Shown piece after piece: positions 44,853-52,295 of a stretch of DNA of 64,000 bases. The notes under the pieces are model-generated. The model had not been told where the DNA came from. It ran no database searches and saw only the letters and a list, made by a program, of their open reading frames with translations. A program made the translations under genes and the position numbers. The DNA comes from a virus (lineage: Duplodnaviria; Caudoviricetes), in IMG/VR virus record IMGVR_UViG_3300046786_000293, positions 256,001-320,000 of that record, one strand, 5' to 3'. Within the stretch, counting starts at the first letter, position 1, and each line of letters begins with the position of its first letter.

Positions 44853-45287
44853 TTATTTTAAACTAGAACGTAACATCCATGCATGTTTGTCATGAGCGTC
44901 CATGCGCTCTGCCAAGAAGTTGCTTAAGCCATGCTTGCCTTCGCGTTCGGATAAGTCATAGACTAGTTTTAGTACTCTAACAATTTTTCCGCTGTCTTCT
45001 AATAGTTCCGCTACCATTGCTTCTTTTGGTGGAACTTGTGTTTCGTCGTCGATTTGACTTAGCATACTTAGACGACTAAAACTAGCAGGAGTATAACTGC
45101 CTAACTTACGAATATTCTCTCCAAATGGATCGATGCTGTCCAACACTTCTTCGTATATCTTACCAAATAAATCATGATATTCTAAAAAGTCAGATCCTTC
45201 TACGTTGAAGTGGAAGAAATGTGCTTTTAGATAAAATGCAAATTCTGTACTGTATGCAATTTTCATTGCTTTAATTAGTTCATCCAT
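44853..45287 (-). CDS. dps: Dps / ferritin-like DNA protection protein
   Basis: KAHFFHFNVEG..F...HDLF...Y......D..GE.IR; HDKHAWML. Confidence 0.92.
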   Translation of the reverse strand: MDELIKAMKIAYSTEFAFYLKAHFFHFNVEGSDFLEYHDLFGKIYEEVLDSIDPFGENIRKLGSYTPASFSRLSMLSQIDDETQVPPKEAMVAELLEDSGKIVRVLKLVYDLSEREGKHGLSNFLAERMDAHDKHAWMLRSSLK

Positions 45288-47265
45288 TTTTCTTTACCTT
45301 CTTAACTCGTTGTTGTCCACGTGGTACGCTACCTACAGGGCTAACGAAATTATCATCGCCTATTGTAGCCGCACTAACTGTATGCTTACTTAAATCATAT
45401 TCAGTAAATGTGCGTGTTGCTTCTAAATATAATTTTTTAAAGTTTTGGTTGCTTTCACTTAGGAACCAACCATTATTGTCTTTTCTAAGTCCGAACTTGT
45501 TGCGTAGTTCTCCTGCGCTGGTTCCGGATATTTTAAAATAGCGACGACTTTCGCTGATACTATTGTTTGTTCTTTGTAGTCTTTCCAGTACATCTTGTAC
45601 AGCCAGATCTAAGTCGCTCATGCTGCCGATTTCGCCGTATTTGTCTACAACGTCCATAATAGCGTCTCCGACTACTTCGTGTCCAAATTGACGTACAACA
45701 TCCCCCTCTATTTGATTTAGTGCCTTGAAAATAGCATCGGCTAAATCTAGTCCGCTGATTGTTTCGCTAATTGGAATGTTTTGAATATCTAATATAGCCG
45801 CTGGCTTAGGACCACCACCGCCCGAAGTTGGTGGCTTAGGTGGAGTACGTTGTCCGCTTGGTGGTACATACACTTGTTGTGGTGGATATGTTCTGGTAGG
45901 TTGTGTGCTTAGTACAGGAGTAACAGGACCTATACGTTGTTCCGCCATGCTTTGCTTCTGACGCCACACACTGGAATTCTTTAGTCTGCTGGTTGAACCC
46001 CAAGCAATGCTACGACCGTTGAATACAAAAATCAATTTGTTCAACACCACAGCAGGGCTATGTGGATCTGAGCCAAACTCGCCAGAAACATCACCTATCT
46101 TACGAGCACCCTTGGACTCCAAGAACTTCCAAAACTTTTCAACTGCTTTGGCTTTATGCCACTTGGGTTGATCCTCTGGTTTCAAATCACGGTCAATAAA
46201 AATGTATCCTGGGTCTTTGTATCGTGAGCCATCACCACGAGTCCACATTCTCATACCGGGATTTTTATAATCCATTGGATAGTATGGGCTCCCGCTCATT
46301 TGTTTATTAAATTCAGAGATTAGGCCTCTAATAAAATCAATGGTAGGAGATTCGGTTATAGTATCTTCCGCCACACCTGAATCAGGTCTTGCTGTCATCA
46401 TGGCACCGGGATCAATATTGCCCTTGTTGTCATAACGATGCTGAACACCCTTCTTACCTGCTTTGACTAGTCTTTCCATTGCGGCTTTGGCATCACGATA
46501 GTTATCGTGTGTGGTGGTCTTGATCCAATCACCACTTGAATTGCGATAGCCTACATGAATTTTGCCTTCCGCCACACCTTTAACATCCCAGGTTTTATGG
46601 CACTGGTGACATTCCTTCTCGCCATCACTGTATGTTTTTATGTCGGTGGAATGACAACGCGGGCACTGGTATTGTTTGCCCAGACGACCTTCGTTGCCAT
46701 CATCGCGGATTGGGTGTTCTTCGTCATCGTAGCCTTCCGCCACACCTTGACTTTTACTACGATTAAAATCTCTTGTTGCTTGACGACTTCTGGCGCGGGT
46801 GCTCGGTTCTTTGTATGCTCTCCAACGATCAACCTTTGTGCCACACTTGGTGCAATGTAATACACCATCCATGTCATCGTGGATGCTGGTTTCTTGATAC
46901 TTGCCCTTCTTACACTTTTCGCAAGTCTGACCAGTCATATCTTTTTGTGTAGAGCCTTCCTCCACACCTTGCTTGGTTCTAATAATCTCACGGTCAAGGG
47001 CTCTGATCTCTGATTTCAAATCAACTAATCTTAACTCACCATTTTCTAATGCTCGTTTAATCCCCAATTTAGTATCAACTAAATCAGTAACTGACATATT
47101 TTGAATCTGACTTAGTAGGTCTGCATAATACCCAGCATAATAATCATTGGTATCGTCATCGTCTAAACCTTCAGACACACCTTCATTTAAATGTGTGCAA
47201 TTGCAAGGCGTTTGCCCGCACACATTACACATATCTCTACTTTCAAAAAAATCAAATAATTTCAT
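45280..47265 (-). CDS. Modular protein with repeated GV(A/S/E)E linkers and Cys-pair (Zn-ribbon) modules; likely internal head protein
   Basis: Starts MKLFDFFE; five GVxE linkers; CxxC pairs (CNVC..C.C, CEKC..CTKC, CPRC..CHQC). Confidence 0.75.
   Translation of the reverse strand: MKLFDFFESRDMCNVCGQTPCNCTHLNEGVSEGLDDDDTNDYYAGYYADLLSQIQNMSVTDLVDTKLGIKRALENGELRLVDLKSEIRALDREIIRTKQGVEEGSTQKDMTGQTCEKCKKGKYQETSIHDDMDGVLHCTKCGTKVDRWRAYKEPSTRARSRQATRDFNRSKSQGVAEGYDDEEHPIRDDGNEGRLGKQYQCPRCHSTDIKTYSDGEKECHQCHKTWDVKGVAEGKIHVGYRNSSGDWIKTTTHDNYRDAKAAMERLVKAGKKGVQHRYDNKGNIDPGAMMTARPDSGVAEDTITESPTIDFIRGLISEFNKQMSGSPYYPMDYKNPGMRMWTRGDGSRYKDPGYIFIDRDLKPEDQPKWHKAKAVEKFWKFLESKGARKIGDVSGEFGSDPHSPAVVLNKLIFVFNGRSIAWGSTSRLKNSSVWRQKQSMAEQRIGPVTPVLSTQPTRTYPPQQVYVPPSGQRTPPKPPTSGGGGPKPAAILDIQNIPISETISGLDLADAIFKALNQIEGDVVRQFGHEVVGDAIMDVVDKYGEIGSMSDLDLAVQDVLERLQRTNNSISESRRYFKISGTSAGELRNKFGLRKDNNGWFLSESNQNFKKLYLEATRTFTEYDLSKHTVSAATIGDDNFVSPVGSVPRGQQRVKKVKKNG
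46366..47181 (-). repeat. Dispersed 12-nt repeat GGTGTGGCGGAA (Gly-Val-Ala-Glu)
   Basis: Exact copies at 46366, 46567 and 46735; variants at 46957 and 47170; also 51651 (exact) and 51846 (variant). Confidence 0.85.
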
Positions 47266-47266
47266 A

Positions 47267-49558
47267 TTACTTTCCTTGCCTTGCCAACATTGCTGCATTA
47301 CTTAGTGCTGTTTTTAGAGCAGGTGCAGATTGCGGACTTTCTGCAGCCTTGGCAATTAACGGTGTTAGTGCGCTCATAGACATAGATTCAGGCGAAGTTA
47401 ATGGTTTATTATCGCTTATTTTTGTAACTGCACTGCTTAATGTATTTGTATCTACTTTTGGACCTAGTACACTAGATAAACCGCTCATCGTGCTTTTGGC
47501 AGTAGATACATCTTGCATTTGGTCTAATTGTTGTTGTTTTACAGCAGCAGGATCTTGTTGTACGCTTGTTTGGCTTGTGATTTGTATATCTGGATCCTGT
47601 TTATTAACTGCGGGATCTTCTACTTCATTTGTCTTTTTGCGATCTAACGCACGTAATTTTTGTGCAAGTTTGGCTATATCTACTGGACCATGTTCACGTT
47701 CTTGTTTTTGTACAAGTTTTTTAACACGAGCAATCATGTTATCAAAATCATCTGGATCATAGCGGCTTGCTATTAAATTGTCATCTTTGTTTTCTTTCAT
47801 TCCTGAACGATACCCTGTGTGTTGTACGTGTACTGGATCATTGGGGAGAAATCCTAAATTATACTTATCACCCTTTGGATCATTTTTTGCCAACCAATTG
47901 CGTAATGCCGCAATTTGGTCTGCTCTTGCGTCAATTGCATGGGCTTTGTGGCTTTCGGGATCTTTAGGAGGAGCCCCGTAAACACCAGGTCTTCCTGCTT
48001 TATAATCTCGATGAAGTTTTTCCTGTTCTGCGGCTGTTCTTGCTGAGCTAGTAACGGTTATTGGTATACCCGAATCTTTGCTGGCACGTTCTAAATTAGA
48101 TCTGAATGTTGAATCTAATTTTGTATAACGATCAGCTTGTTTAGCATCGGCGAATCCGAAGTGACTAGGAGAAGTATCTAATGCTTCGATGTTTTTTGGA
48201 TTTTTTACGTGCCAACGACCGTCGTCTGACTTGTAAGTACCGTCAGATTGTTTAGTGAAACTTACGTTAATATTTTTTGTTGGATCTGAAGGATCCTTTA
48301 CATCTCTGAATAACTTGGTTCCTGGAAGATGTCCAGTAATCTTAGTAGGAGTTTGTTGATCTGCAGGAGTAGATGCAGCAGCCGAGGCCTGGCTTGGGAC
48401 TGTTTGAGTAGAAGCGGGTGCAGGTGCGGCTGTTTTAGTTGCCGGTTGAGTAGCAGTAGGCGTAGGTGCAGAACTTGCGGCGGTTTTGTTAACAACTCGT
48501 TCACCGGGTGACAAAGAATCTGCCGTGCTCACCGAAGGAGTTGGTGTTGTACTTCTTGTAGTCGGTGCCGCCGAAGTGTTTGTTCGTGTAGATGTTGCAG
48601 GAGTTTGAGCATTGGGGTCAACGCTACTACCACCAATTTCACCTCTTCGTACTTTTGCAGCAATTTTTTCTAATGTGTCCCCGGGACTAACTATATGCTT
48701 TTCGGTGCTTCCAGGTAATTTAATTTCTTGCCCGGGATAAATTTTATTAGGATTCTTGATAGCTGGATTACTCTTCCAAACTTCTTGCCAACTTCCTGGA
48801 GCAGGATTTTTTGGCATTTGTGGAATAACTGGAGCAGCAGGTTTGGTTGGTGCTGGCGCGGTTGCAGTTGTGGCTGGGGGCAAAGGTTGTGAAGTAATTT
48901 TAACGGGCTCTGCGACAGGTTTAACTTCTGGACCAGGTACAACGGTGCTAGGTGCAGGTTGTGCTACAGGTTGTTGTGCTACGGTAGTTCCTGGTTCGCG
49001 TGCTATACTTTGATCTCTGTCCGGACTTACTAGATCTGCTGCCTTTGCTACATTAATTTGACCACCAGAGCCAACTGGTGCGCCTGAGCCACTTCTAACT
49101 GGCTCACCGGTACTTGTTTGTACTACAGGGGGATTTTTATCTAAGTATGTTCTTATTTCATCTTGTGTAGCAGGTTGCATACCCATACGTTGACGAACGA
49201 TAGGATCTATTCCTGTATATGTAGGAGTCTTACTGGCATTCCATTGTTTATCTAATTCTGCTTTAGGTAAATCAGGACCACTGGAGGCTCTTAACGCTGC
49301 CCAATCATTTGCTGTATTATTGGTTTCTTCTTTAAACTTATTAAATTTTTCTAATAAGGACCACTCGGTGACTTTTTCTTTAGCAGTATTGTGTAGATCT
49401 TTTATTATACTTTCTTCGCAGCCACCGACCATTTTAGATTTGGCTTTGCTAGCAGGATCAGTACCTTTCCAGTAGCCGGGAAATTTAGGACCTGTAGATT
49501 TTTTAGCAGCCTTTTCCATGCTATCTACTGCTTCTAAAAGTTTACGCATATTGGTCAT
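47267..49558 (-). CDS. Pro/Thr-rich protein with LysM-like and M15-type peptidase domains
   Basis: NPAIKNPNKIYPGQEIKLP and HIVSPGDTLEKIA (LysM halves); SSARTAAEQ, SHKAHAID, DPVHVQ (M15 Zn peptidase). Confidence 0.8.
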   Translation of the reverse strand: MTNMRKLLEAVDSMEKAAKKSTGPKFPGYWKGTDPASKAKSKMVGGCEESIIKDLHNTAKEKVTEWSLLEKFNKFKEETNNTANDWAALRASSGPDLPKAELDKQWNASKTPTYTGIDPIVRQRMGMQPATQDEIRTYLDKNPPVVQTSTGEPVRSGSGAPVGSGGQINVAKAADLVSPDRDQSIAREPGTTVAQQPVAQPAPSTVVPGPEVKPVAEPVKITSQPLPPATTATAPAPTKPAAPVIPQMPKNPAPGSWQEVWKSNPAIKNPNKIYPGQEIKLPGSTEKHIVSPGDTLEKIAAKVRRGEIGGSSVDPNAQTPATSTRTNTSAAPTTRSTTPTPSVSTADSLSPGERVVNKTAASSAPTPTATQPATKTAAPAPASTQTVPSQASAAASTPADQQTPTKITGHLPGTKLFRDVKDPSDPTKNINVSFTKQSDGTYKSDDGRWHVKNPKNIEALDTSPSHFGFADAKQADRYTKLDSTFRSNLERASKDSGIPITVTSSARTAAEQEKLHRDYKAGRPGVYGAPPKDPESHKAHAIDARADQIAALRNWLAKNDPKGDKYNLGFLPNDPVHVQHTGYRSGMKENKDDNLIASRYDPDDFDNMIARVKKLVQKQEREHGPVDIAKLAQKLRALDRKKTNEVEDPAVNKQDPDIQITSQTSVQQDPAAVKQQQLDQMQDVSTAKSTMSGLSSVLGPKVDTNTLSSAVTKISDNKPLTSPESMSMSALTPLIAKAAESPQSAPALKTALSNAAMLARQGK

Positions 49559-51525
49559 TTTATTTTTCTTTTATCGTACGGTACTTTAAAGTCATTGATA
49601 AATTCTTTAAATTCTTTAACAGCTCCAGGTATACCTCCAGGAGTTATTCTATGTAAACGTTCAATCCAGTCGTCATTTTTTGAACTACCAGATCCTACTC
49701 CTGGCCCAGTACCTGTTCCTACACCGCCACCGGTACCTCCGCCGGACCCACTGCTTTGTTGTGAATCTTTTTCTTTATCTTTACCAGACGCTGCGGGCGC
49801 AAAGGTAGGCTCGCTTGCTGGTTTTTGCTGTGGTGTTGCTTGTGGCTTAACAGGCTCAGGTTGCGGCTTTACTTGAGGTTTAGTAGGCTCAGGTTGCGGT
49901 TTTACTGGTTCAGGCTCAACGGCAATGTCTGCGGGTTTTGTAACTGGAGGCAAATCTTCTGGTCTCCATATTTCGACAGGCATCGGTACAGTTTGTGATG
50001 TTGGTTCTGCGGCAGGTTCTTGATCTACTTTGCCTTGCCCTTGTCCTTCTTTACCGCCGCCGCCTGTAGTCATTGAAGCACCCACAGGCACAGCCGCTGG
50101 GCTCCACATTTTTTTATCGCCTTGCATTTTGGGCGGTAAAGGTTCGTCAGCTCTTGACGTCGATGTTGGAGGTTTAATTGGCTGGTCATCCCCTGGTCTT
50201 GTTTGCATTAATTCTTGATCTCGGCGACGGGCCTGTGCTTGTGTGCGTGCGGGATTAATTCGAATTGGATTGGCTATAATAGGAGCATTGGCTGAGGTTG
50301 TTGCTCCCGGTGCAACTTGAGAAGGCTCATTAACAACTTTTAATCTAGGTTTTGGCCCTGCAGGAACTTCTGCACCTTGTGGCATAGCTGAAGGTTGTCC
50401 CGCTCTTTGATAAGCAGGAACTTCAACATTTGCTGGTGTGCGAGGCACAGGTCCCGGAGTAACTCTTGGTCCACTTACTACAGCCCCGCCAGCTCCGCCT
50501 GGCGGAAACTCTAAAGGTATTGTAGTTGGTTTAAAAGGACCTTTGGTTTGTTCTTTTAACTTTCGGCTGCTAATAGGAAAGTTTGTACTTAAAAATTCTT
50601 CAAATTCTTCAGCAACCTTTTTAGTTGCTTGCTCTTTGATCGCTCCAGGTATACCACCCGGTGTTATTCTATGTAAACGTTCAATCCAATCCCCGTCGGG
50701 AGTTTTATAATATGTTGGTTCTTGTTGTGCAACTGCTACCGGCGCCGCAGCTAATTGCCCAGGTCTACCCGGACCTGATGGTTCGTTAGGTCTTGTTGCT
50801 AGTTGTGTCTGCGGGGCAAGTTCGGGCTCGGTGTCGGGCTGCGATGATGTTGCTATACCACGCTGTTGTAATAAATTTAATTCTGCTTTTAAATTGGGAT
50901 CATCGGGAGTCTTTTCGAGTTCACGTCGGACGTCCTTGGCATACTGTTGATCAGCAAATGATGGTTTGTTCCCACCGCCTGCGGCAGTAGAATACACGTT
51001 TGAGTATTCACTTCCTGCGCCAACTTTTACACGAGGTTGTGGCTTTGTTAAAGTAGATACTGTGGCAGATTGTTTTGGTATGCTAGGTTCATTTGCTGCA
51101 ACCGGTGCAGCCTTTGCAAATTTAGTGTCCGGTCCAGTACCGCCAATTACACCCAACGGTTGCGGCGGAGTTGTACCAGCAGCCTTTCGCATATAGGCCG
51201 GTTCTTTAGCACCTTTTGGATCTAACCATGGTTGCTTAGGTGTATATGCTGGAGTTTCTGGATCTATAGAGGGCGGTAATGTAAGTGGTAATGATTTTTG
51301 CCCAGGTGCAGGTGTTGTTGCCCCGGTAGCAGGCTTCTGTGTTGGCTCGACAGGTTTTGTTAATTGCTGACCCATCATATTGAATGCTTTATTACCGGCT
51401 GGTATGTTAGTTAATGTACCTATGGGTAACTTTTGTTGAGAGGGAAAATCATAGACTTTTTTCGCCGCCTGTCCTTGTTCGGCAAGTTTATCTAATGACT
51501 CTAACAAACGACGGATGTCTGACAT
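49555..51525 (-). CDS. Pro/Gly-rich low-complexity modular protein; likely internal head protein
   Basis: Starts MSDIRRLLE; duplicated DWIERLHRITPGGIPGAxKE; KPQPEP repeats. Confidence 0.75.
   Translation of the reverse strand: MSDIRRLLESLDKLAEQGQAAKKVYDFPSQQKLPIGTLTNIPAGNKAFNMMGQQLTKPVEPTQKPATGATTPAPGQKSLPLTLPPSIDPETPAYTPKQPWLDPKGAKEPAYMRKAAGTTPPQPLGVIGGTGPDTKFAKAAPVAANEPSIPKQSATVSTLTKPQPRVKVGAGSEYSNVYSTAAGGGNKPSFADQQYAKDVRRELEKTPDDPNLKAELNLLQQRGIATSSQPDTEPELAPQTQLATRPNEPSGPGRPGQLAAAPVAVAQQEPTYYKTPDGDWIERLHRITPGGIPGAIKEQATKKVAEEFEEFLSTNFPISSRKLKEQTKGPFKPTTIPLEFPPGGAGGAVVSGPRVTPGPVPRTPANVEVPAYQRAGQPSAMPQGAEVPAGPKPRLKVVNEPSQVAPGATTSANAPIIANPIRINPARTQAQARRRDQELMQTRPGDDQPIKPPTSTSRADEPLPPKMQGDKKMWSPAAVPVGASMTTGGGGKEGQGQGKVDQEPAAEPTSQTVPMPVEIWRPEDLPPVTKPADIAVEPEPVKPQPEPTKPQVKPQPEPVKPQATPQQKPASEPTFAPAASGKDKEKDSQQSSGSGGGTGGGVGTGTGPGVGSGSSKNDDWIERLHRITPGGIPGAVKEFKEFINDFKVPYDKRKIK
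49622..50691 (-). repeat. About 50-nt direct repeat encoding DWIERLHRITPGGIPGA
   Basis: Copies at 49622-49671 and 50642-50691, differing at a few synonymous positions. Confidence 0.9.
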
Positions 51526-52295
51526 TACTTTGCCTTTGTTTGCTTTTGCTTGTATGTACCGCCAAACAACGAACCTACTTTGGCTTTGTTCTTTGCTGGG
51601 GGATTCACTACAGTGGCCACGCTGCCTGCTGACATTTCATTCACTGTTGCTTCCGCCACACCTTTCCAGTCAGTTTCGCCGCCCAAATCATCAATATACA
51701 TTGCTTGTTTGATAATGTTCAGTAGATACTTCTTTGCTTCTGGTGTAGGTGCCATCTTAGCATATTGCTTTGCTGTGTAGTCGTCACCATTCTCTAACGC
51801 ATCTCTAACATCTTGCTCAAGGCGTGTTGTGTCAGGATCCCATCCTTCTGCCACACCTTGTTCACGCTCTGCCTGACGCTTTGCCCAACGCTCTTTGTTG
51901 CGCTGAACTTGTTGAGGACTTGCTTTCTTTTCTTTGCTTAGGTCACGATGCAGTGCTTTACCTAGTGCGCTAGTATGCGGATTCTTTTCAGACTCCGCCA
52001 CAGGCATAGCATCGCCAACTACGGCAACTACTTCTTCAGCAGGACCACCGCTCATTAATTGATATTCTAAGTGTTCACGGACGGTGTTTAGATAGTCTGC
52101 AGCCAGGGTAATTTTACTGCTTACCCAACCTTCTAAGCCTTGTTGTTCACTAACATGGCGTAGTAGTTTGTGTAATGCAATTGCGTCTTCTGCAGCATGA
52201 TACAGTTCTTTTCGAGCCATTTGCACTTCATGATCTAAGTGCATTTCGTGTGCATCTTCGGCAATGCCTTCATTTAAAAAATCTAAACTTTTCAT
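51525..52295 (-). CDS. Modular protein with GVAE linkers; likely internal head protein
   Basis: Starts MKSLDFLNEGIAE; LEGWVSSKITLAADYL module; two GVAE linkers; TAAATA at 52319-52324. Confidence 0.75.
   Translation of the reverse strand: MKSLDFLNEGIAEDAHEMHLDHEVQMARKELYHAAEDAIALHKLLRHVSEQQGLEGWVSSKITLAADYLNTVREHLEYQLMSGGPAEEVVAVVGDAMPVAESEKNPHTSALGKALHRDLSKEKKASPQQVQRNKERWAKRQAEREQGVAEGWDPDTTRLEQDVRDALENGDDYTAKQYAKMAPTPEAKKYLLNIIKQAMYIDDLGGETDWKGVAEATVNEMSAGSVATVVNPPAKNKAKVGSLFGGTYKQKQTKAK

Follow-up and report, generated by a model that had tools for sequence, protein, structure and literature searches.

The 'recer' sequences of Gram-positive cocci are, by analogy, the closest conceptual precedent for the element described here, a short coding repeat that joins protein modules in two genes of a giant freshwater T4-like phage. 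Recer sequences are described as multiple 15-bp direct repeats at the domain borders of albumin-binding surface proteins of these bacteria, and are proposed to promote in-frame interdomain shuffling in the family of protein PAB and protein G (de Chateau & Bjorck, PNAS 1996, as described in PMC3467074). The stretch of DNA under study, called the window below, is 64,000 nucleotides (nt) long and covers bases 256001-320000 of the 338,510-bp virus record IMGVR_UViG_3300046786_000293. The phage repeat, called the joint or linker, encodes the peptide Gly-Val-Ala-Glu (GVAE) in the spelling GGT GTG GCG GAA, written GGTGTGGCGGAA below. The joint is conserved at its silent positions far beyond what codon usage or shared descent can account for. 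Whole modules are gained, lost, rearranged and transferred from gene to gene, and from one phage to an otherwise unrelated one, with the two junctions lying within the joint. Recer sequences are like the joint in being short direct repeats within an intronless gene, placed at module borders and coding for a spacer, with modules shuffled between genes. They differ in that recer sequences belong to bacterial cell-wall proteins, have no protease-site role, and occur in far fewer genes; the two were compared by description.

The capsid targeting sequence (CTS) of T4 is MKTYQEFIAE, and it is cut after the final Glu. Targeting sequences of 10 residues, gp21-type cleavage after Glu and diverse injected internal proteins have been documented, and the T4 internal proteins are a hyperplastic, highly diverse anti-defence set that is injected into the host (PMC3012670, PMC9026906, PMC5694885). 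The T4 proteins IPI, IPII, IPIII and Alt resemble the products of the joint-bearing genes in their short leader of the M-K-x-x-x-E-F-I-x-E type and in the gp21-family protease. However, they are encoded by separate small genes with one cleavage each, whereas many modules with internal joints are fused here. In the gp38 adhesin of T-even tail fibres, short conserved motifs (His boxes and glycine-rich motifs) lie between hypervariable segments, as joints lie between modules (PMC3157838), and exchanges in T4-type phages occur in or near these motifs (Tetart 1998, PMC3157838). The gp38 motifs form the structural core of one folded domain in a fixed order, whereas the joints are spacers between non-homologous modules in free order. 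The PeSL cassettes of T4-type phages are similar in that short conserved sequences flank variable genes, which are shuffled as modules by recombination, and PeSL-like elements occur at T-even internal-protein loci (PMC2839356, PMC4122927). A PeSL is an intergenic promoter plus stem-loop of ~50-60 bp, while the joint is 12-18 nt long, coding, in frame and without predicted structure. The inner-body or ejection proteins of phiKZ and SPN3US are likewise giant-phage head cargo, cut several times after Glu by a gp21-related protease at S/A-X-E or A-X-E (PMC5694885, PMC9026906). These phages belong to a different lineage, and for them no account was found of cassette exchange or of a joint conserved in its DNA. 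The joint is set apart from these analogues by being coding and in frame, by lying between non-homologous, independent modules, and by probably doubling as a protease site. For the motif GVAEG or QGVAEG, nothing relevant was found in the literature searched.

The genes and sites concerned are given below in window coordinates unless stated otherwise, together with the points at which contigs from other metagenomes (X3, X4, X8 and X10) begin to match or depart from the window.

45280..47298, minus strand: polyprotein gene 1, an open reading frame (ORF) of 672 aa with about seven modules, including three small Cys/Zn-ribbon modules, seen in the ORF and its translation.
51525..52295, minus strand: polyprotein gene 2, 256 aa, with a T4-CTS-like leader MKSLDFLNEGIAE, seen in the ORF and its translation.
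46366..46377, minus strand: exact joint GGT GTG GCG GAA (SGVAED); X4 contigs depart at 46378.
46567..46578, minus strand: exact joint (KGVAEG), 18-mer AAAGGTGTGGCGGAAGGC; four contigs (X8, X10) depart at 46580.
46735..46746, minus strand: exact joint (QGVAEG), the perfect 18-nt consensus CAAGGTGTGGCGGAAGGC; X4 and X10 contigs depart at 46749.
46957..46968, minus strand: variant GGT GTG GAG GAA (QGVEEG), one step off the consensus; X4 departs at 46973 and X8 at 46953.
47170..47181, minus strand: variant GGT GTG TCT GAA (EGVSEG), the joint that comes first behind the leader module; X3 and X10 contig matches start at 47192.
51651..51662, minus strand: exact joint of gene 2 (KGVAEA); the match of an X3 contig begins at 51650.
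51846..51857, minus strand: variant GGT GTG GCA GAA (QGVAEG), differing by a single silent change; the match of an X10 contig begins at 51844.
51993..52004, minus strand: degenerate joint CCT GTG GCG GAG (PVAE), in frame, read from the sequence.
45940..45951, minus strand: degenerate joint AGC ATG GCG GAA (SMAE), in frame; an X8 contig breaks at 45952.
52257..52268, minus strand: leader site of gene 2, GGC ATT GCC GAA (GIAE).
Genome 139304-140689, outside the window, minus strand: third linker-bearing ORF, 462 aa, adjoining a terminase-like gene.

The preliminary description of this DNA had placed exact copies of the 12-mer at 46366, 46567, 46735 and 51651. All four were recovered in frame on the minus strand, which is the coding strand, and they are the only copies of GGTGTGGCGGAA in the whole genome; 100 dinucleotide-preserving shuffles of the window contained none. 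When up to two mismatches were allowed, seven window sites were found, again on the minus strand only. The three additional sites, 46957 (GGTGTGGAGGAA, GVEE), 47170 (GGTGTGTCTGAA, GVSE) and 51846 (GGTGTGGCAGAA, GVAE), are the near-exact copies in two genes that had also been reported, and the fainter echoes described near 51993 and 45940 proved to be real and in frame as well. Read in frame, the seven sites give G-V-A-E five times, G-V-E-E once and G-V-S-E once. All of them fall inside gene 1 or gene 2, and their spacings are all multiples of three (201, 168, 222, 213 and 195 nt from joint to joint). As seven copies of a 16-nt repeat, the joint is the top direct-repeat family of the region, present in a single phase and at module borders, and the DNA that flanks it differs from copy to copy without relatedness. 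Among the ORFs of the genome, 7 of the 8 motifs of the form G-[VI]-[AS]-E sit in these two genes. The third linker-bearing ORF carries the joints CAA AGT GTG GCG GAA GGC (QSVAEG) and CAA GGT TTA GCG GAA GGC (QGLAEG), 216 nt apart. The GIAE leader site of gene 2 encodes a similar peptide with ordinary codons, and it therefore serves as an internal control without the DNA signature. This leader site (within 52246-52278) and the first joint of gene 1 (within 47159-47191) share a common DNA context, TTTAAATGAAGG, which encodes L-N-E-G and suggests, at the level of sequence, a conserved first site of the form 'LNEG-aliphatic-x-E' after the leader.

The proposal that synonymous positions are fixed beyond what protein-level selection requires was borne out by the codon analysis. 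Over the ~349 called ORFs of the genome, GGT supplies 38% of Gly codons, GTG 12.3% of Val, GCG 7.7% of Ala and GAA 81.5% of Glu. Under this usage the exact spelling is expected in 0.3% of GVAE peptides, and the probability that at least 4 of 5 GVAE peptides carry the exact 12-mer is 3.7e-10. Synonymous codon shuffling within genes gave a mean of 0.075 copies and a maximum of 2, with none of the 400 runs reaching four; this control is conservative because the linkers' own codons remain in the pool. The comparison was extended to 32 related loci of 38-51% GC, which were collected by protein-based searches of viral contigs using module peptides and not linker DNA. The exact 12-mer is present in 28 of these 32 loci, mostly in several copies, with every copy on the coding strand and none on the opposite one. 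At 72 non-redundant GVAE sites in the related loci, the consensus codons were counted 68 (GGT), 64 (GTG), 61 (GCG) and 67 (GAA) times. For 41 linkers with unrelated flanking peptides, the corresponding counts were 38, 37, 36 and 38, compared with background shares of 48%, 16%, 9% and 75% in the same ORFs. Thus, with all copies counted, codon usage in the linkers was found to lie far from the background. The preference extends to both sides of the 12-mer in the 41-linker set, where the Gly codon at P1' is GGC in 22 of 29 cases (31% in the background) and the P5 codon is CAA in 29 of 41 linkers. The flanking preferences for CAA and GGC define a conserved element of ~18 nt, CAA GGT GTG GCG GAA GGC (Q-G-V-A-E-G). 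Linker variants are one-step neighbours of this consensus, mostly by transitions (GTA, GCA, GAG).

Silent sites in linkers and modules were then compared between pairs of homologous polyproteins, at the third positions of conserved G, V, A and E codons. Third-position identity in the modules fell from 0.89 to 0.48 as protein identity dropped, whereas in the linkers it stayed at 0.82-0.84. Because the silent identity of linkers does not decay while that of modules saturates, shared descent cannot explain it, and the result indicates a restoring force on the silent sites.

The joint is also the place where related genes stop resembling each other. When the window genes were aligned with the loci by blastn, 56 of 74 distinct-block ends lay within 15 nt of a joint, compared with 17 of 74 random positions. 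Relatives match only one or a few modules (for example residues 309-449, 106-164 and 211-245 of gene 1; residues 99-151 and 144-216 of gene 2). Blocks to at least 20 loci begin at gene nt 294-313, at or just past the degenerate joint 51993..52004, and similarity blocks stop at gene nt 1346-1359, the position of the degenerate joint 45940..45951. In two loci (L005 and L022), the gene 1 module at nt 739-1347 is followed directly by the gene 2 module at nt 434-648, and a third module, nt 294-428 of gene 2, is found further along, so that the order is reversed. Another locus (L009) has an additional 76-residue module at the joint 46735..46746, flanked by joints that are next to each other in the window, and its neighbouring modules are 98% and 90% identical to the window. 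In an all-versus-all comparison of linker-bearing genes, internal block ends lay within 12 nt of a joint edge in 53% of cases at >=95% identity and in 49% at 85-95% identity, compared with 6-8% under random placement. For 142 of 158 exact joints (90%), at least one homologue was found whose similarity stops at the joint. When exact and degenerate joints were compared, breaks occurred at 91% and 75% respectively, a difference that is not decisive since the degenerate class probably includes false joints. The clearest transfer is between a 171-kb contig (L031) and an 11-kb contig (L034), which share one 224-nt cassette with 99.55% identity as their sole similarity in ~10 kb. Their identity sets in at AAGGTGTGGCGGAA and runs through the final base of the following GGTGTGGCGGAA.

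Contigs assembled independently from four further metagenomes (freshwater, estuary and aquatic; Logan assemblies) show the same breaks. There, 15 of the 24 listed departures from the window fall within 15 nt of a joint, and joints with their margins account for ~5% of the stretch. The gene 2 module between the joints 51651 and 51846 (51665-51867) is missing from one X10 contig. The words used in the Logan assembly are longer than the repeat, so the contig joins are unlikely to be chimeras. Indels and rearrangements among relatives are therefore bounded by the repeat, which partly supports the proposal in the preliminary description that modules are exchanged by recombination between linker repeats. 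The exchange of modules at the joint is established by these comparisons; that 12-18 nt of identity cause the crossovers, by short-homology recombination, is what we infer.

The source of the window is a giant freshwater T4-like phage. The DNA polymerase encoded near the polyprotein genes is of the T4 type, with the best match in Sinorhizobium phage Phosso (52% identity), followed by Agrobacterium phage Atu_ph07 (48%) and Rak2-like jumbo phages (42%). A megablast search of cultured phages gave no match, and the repeated 12-mer was not found in Phosso and Atu_ph07, the nearest cultured phages by DNA polymerase, or in Variovorax phage V45v66. In the viral collection, the 14-mer AGGTGTGGCGGAAG gave at least 171 matches in at least 120 stretches. 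Among the matches listed, 149 are in frame for GVAE within ORFs of >=150 aa, two or more linker-like motifs occur in 113 of these ORFs, and 29 stretches are multi-copy; the usual context is (K/E)-Q-G-V-A-E-G. The synonymous control AGGTGTTGCAGAAG, which uses the preferred codons GTT and GCA, also matched at least 120 stretches, but among the matches listed all were single-copy and only 14 ORFs had two linker-like motifs. One consensus holds in contigs of 33-51% GC. The joint belongs to a large clade of uncultured T4-related jumbo phages. A search for the 18-mer in prokaryotes (one genome per species, 185,579 species) returned single chance matches in high-GC taxa and one short contig. The contig CAILDT010000116.1, of 8.9 kb and binned in a lake Bacteroidetes metagenome-assembled genome, contains the exact 12-mer four times in a 510-aa ORF; it is probably phage DNA that was mis-binned and gives only a weak hint of the host.

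The linker-bearing genes most likely encode head-targeted cargo polyproteins that are cut at the linkers, as judged from their leaders and from the protease encoded in the genome. The leader pattern was matched in 43 of 98 linker-bearing ORFs of related contigs and in 29 of 349 ORFs of the genome, counts that rest on a pattern match only. The true start of gene 1 is likely the second ATG, at 47265, which gives the leader MKLFDFFES, and gene 2 has a TAAATA 27 nt upstream of its ATG. The genome encodes a gp21-family prohead protease (PF03420 Peptidase_S77, genome 192411-192863, E=4.2e-27, above the cut-off). The sequence V-A-E followed by G would be the cutting site for this enzyme, whose known relatives cut after Glu, and the modules released inside the head would then be injected together with the DNA. 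No Pfam family was matched by genes 1 and 2 apart from a weak, sub-threshold Zn-ribbon match in gene 1, no PHROG family was matched by either gene, and neither showed homology to T4 IPI-III or Alt in the Pfam and PHROG searches. In Variovorax phage V45v66, a free-standing small gene is 44% identical to the Zn-ribbon module at 46780-46970 (gene 1 residues 114-177), which shows that polyproteins are not the only setting of at least one module. V45v66 itself had been considered as a cultured carrier of such a polyprotein and was rejected, since the match is the free-standing Zn-ribbon gene.

The explanation that we favour, with a probability of roughly 0.55, is that the DNA of the joint acts as a recombination handle that drives cassette exchange. 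In this model, an 18-nt in-frame joint, with the 12-mer as its core, separates unrelated modules of 50-150 residues in head-targeted 'cargo' polyproteins. In a mixed infection, the T4-type recombination and replication machinery would produce crossovers or template switches inside the short identical joints; a RecA/UvsX-like gene is present in the genome. Because all joints share one phase, every exchange keeps the reading frame without further adjustment. Cassettes flanked by two consensus joints would move and spread, while mutated joints would be dead ends, and occasional conversion between joints would add homogenisation. Cassette spread and conversion together would keep the DNA uniform, in the manner of biased conversion or weak selection. 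DNA copying between the joints of one phage is favoured by the sharing of silent variants. Among 433 non-redundant joints from 121 loci, non-consensus states are common to joints of the same phage beyond a GC-stratified permutation, and at silent positions only, 77 shared states were counted compared with 46.9 expected (sd 7.5, p=0.0007). The same test limited to GVAE sites was not significant (10 versus 6.3, p=0.115). The flanks of same-phage joint pairs that share a variant are only 28% identical, which indicates that these joints are not duplicated units.

Several points weigh against the handle model. For homologous recombination, 12-18 nt is a very short stretch of identity, and neither recombination intermediates nor circles nor an enzyme have been observed. 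An advantage in evolvability or transmission is a second-order force and is expected to be weak. The blocks would stop at linkers in any model in which modules are the selected units. GVAE is absent from the major capsid protein and from other head proteins encoded in the genome. Finally, a single consensus spans 33-51% GC and probably different hosts, and a universal nucleotide function fits this at least equally well.

Such a function is the basis of an alternative that we regard as possible but unlikely, in which selection acts directly on the mRNA or DNA (as a translational pause, rRNA pairing, a two-layer G-quadruplex or a site bound by a phage protein) and exchange is a by-product of domain borders. 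Besides the uniform consensus, it can draw on the rarity of GTG and GCG, for which none of the 40 tRNAs of the phage is cognate, so that these codons would be read by wobble. The core also has four GG runs when P1' is Gly, and in formal terms the restoring force amounts to weak selection. The RNA-level forms of this alternative that were examined yielded nothing. RNAalifold predicted 0 consensus pairs for 33 linkers with 24-nt flanks. The G-quadruplex reaches only -1.4 kcal/mol, and linkers that lack the fourth GG run still use GTG in 21/27 and GCG in 23/27 cases. An internal Shine-Dalgarno role is opposed by an anti-Shine-Dalgarno duplex of -7.2 kcal/mol that 7% of background 18-mers equal, and the best pairing with 16S rRNA, in the 1400 region at -23.9 kcal/mol, is equalled by 12% of composition-matched shuffled 18-mers. 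No complement of a guide-sequence kind was found elsewhere in the genome at up to 2 mismatches. The common codons GGT, GAA and CAA are fixed as well, and lineage-specific silent variants common to unrelated joints are not expected with one fixed motif. A purely protein-level explanation, with selection on the GVAE cleavage motif plus shared linker ancestry and without any DNA-level force, is hardly credible. The peptide is indeed conserved and plausibly functional, but rare silent codons occur in ~90% of independent linkers, the silent identity of linkers persists where that of modules saturates, and the GIAE leader site of gene 2 uses ordinary codons. The unrelated flanks further indicate that the linkers are not recent duplicates.

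The precise junctions on both sides of transferred cassettes, and a conserved length of 14-18 nt that is typical of a recognition site, could instead reflect a dedicated sequence-specific enzyme (a nuclease, a recombinase or a homing-type enzyme) that targets the 18-nt joint and there brings about the insertion and excision of cassettes. Homing nucleases abound in T4-like phages. On the other hand, no tyrosine recombinase (PF00589), serine recombinase (PF00239) or reverse transcriptase (PF00078) was found in the genome, and the joint has no inverted-repeat or attC-like structure. A conserved neighbouring enzyme gene was not noticed in the loci, although no systematic search was made, and the phage's own genome would itself be a substrate if such an enzyme cut at every joint. 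We consider such an enzyme very improbable. A broader version, in which a dedicated exchange system would use the 18-nt joint for recognition and attachment, is also improbable in our judgement; such an in-frame 'protein integron' would trade injected effector modules of jumbo phages from gene to gene and from one phage to an unrelated one, and the joint would double as the protease release site. Known systems with a comparable appearance were rejected individually. Integron gene cassettes do not apply, with no PF00589 or PF00239 match in the genome and an unstructured joint. A diversity-generating retroelement was rejected on the lack of a PF00078 match and on modules that are unrelated and not variants of one repeat. 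A tandem-repeat protein made by slippage does not fit flanks and modules that are unrelated in sequence and length, and a PeSL regulatory cassette does not fit a joint that lies in frame inside ORFs and gives 0 pairs in the alignment fold.

If the handle model is true, these phages would possess an inherent means, safe for the reading frame, of building and reshuffling libraries of small injected proteins, which would explain the quick diversification of cargo that likely consists of anti-defence or host-takeover factors. It would also be a natural case for the old question of whether a sequence can be kept for promoting recombination (evolvability) rather than for coding. The peptide and DNA roles of the joint can be separated by synonymous recoding. 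One sequence of 14-18 nt tags hundreds of uncharacterised effector modules in metagenomes and marks their exact borders.

Two large low-complexity proteins are encoded on the minus strand between genes 1 and 2, at 47267-49558 and 49555-51525. They have leader-like N-termini, MTNMRKLLEAVDSME and MSDIRRLLESLDKLAE respectively, and the GVAE joint occurs in neither; the first has a LysM domain. The 656-aa gene contains a 59-nt direct repeat (49613-49671 and 50633-50691, 88% identity), which encodes DWIERLHRITPGGIPGA twice, and a 33-nt tandem repeat at 49829-49894 in its Pro/Lys-rich part. Directly downstream of gene 1, a Dps/ferritin-like gene (PF00210, E=2e-17) lies at 44853-45287 on the minus strand. 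Elsewhere in the genome, 39 of the tRNA genes form a cluster at 111567-126564, and a separate tRNA with a CUA anticodon at 183606-183679 is of the amber-suppressor type, labelled Pyl by ARAGORN.

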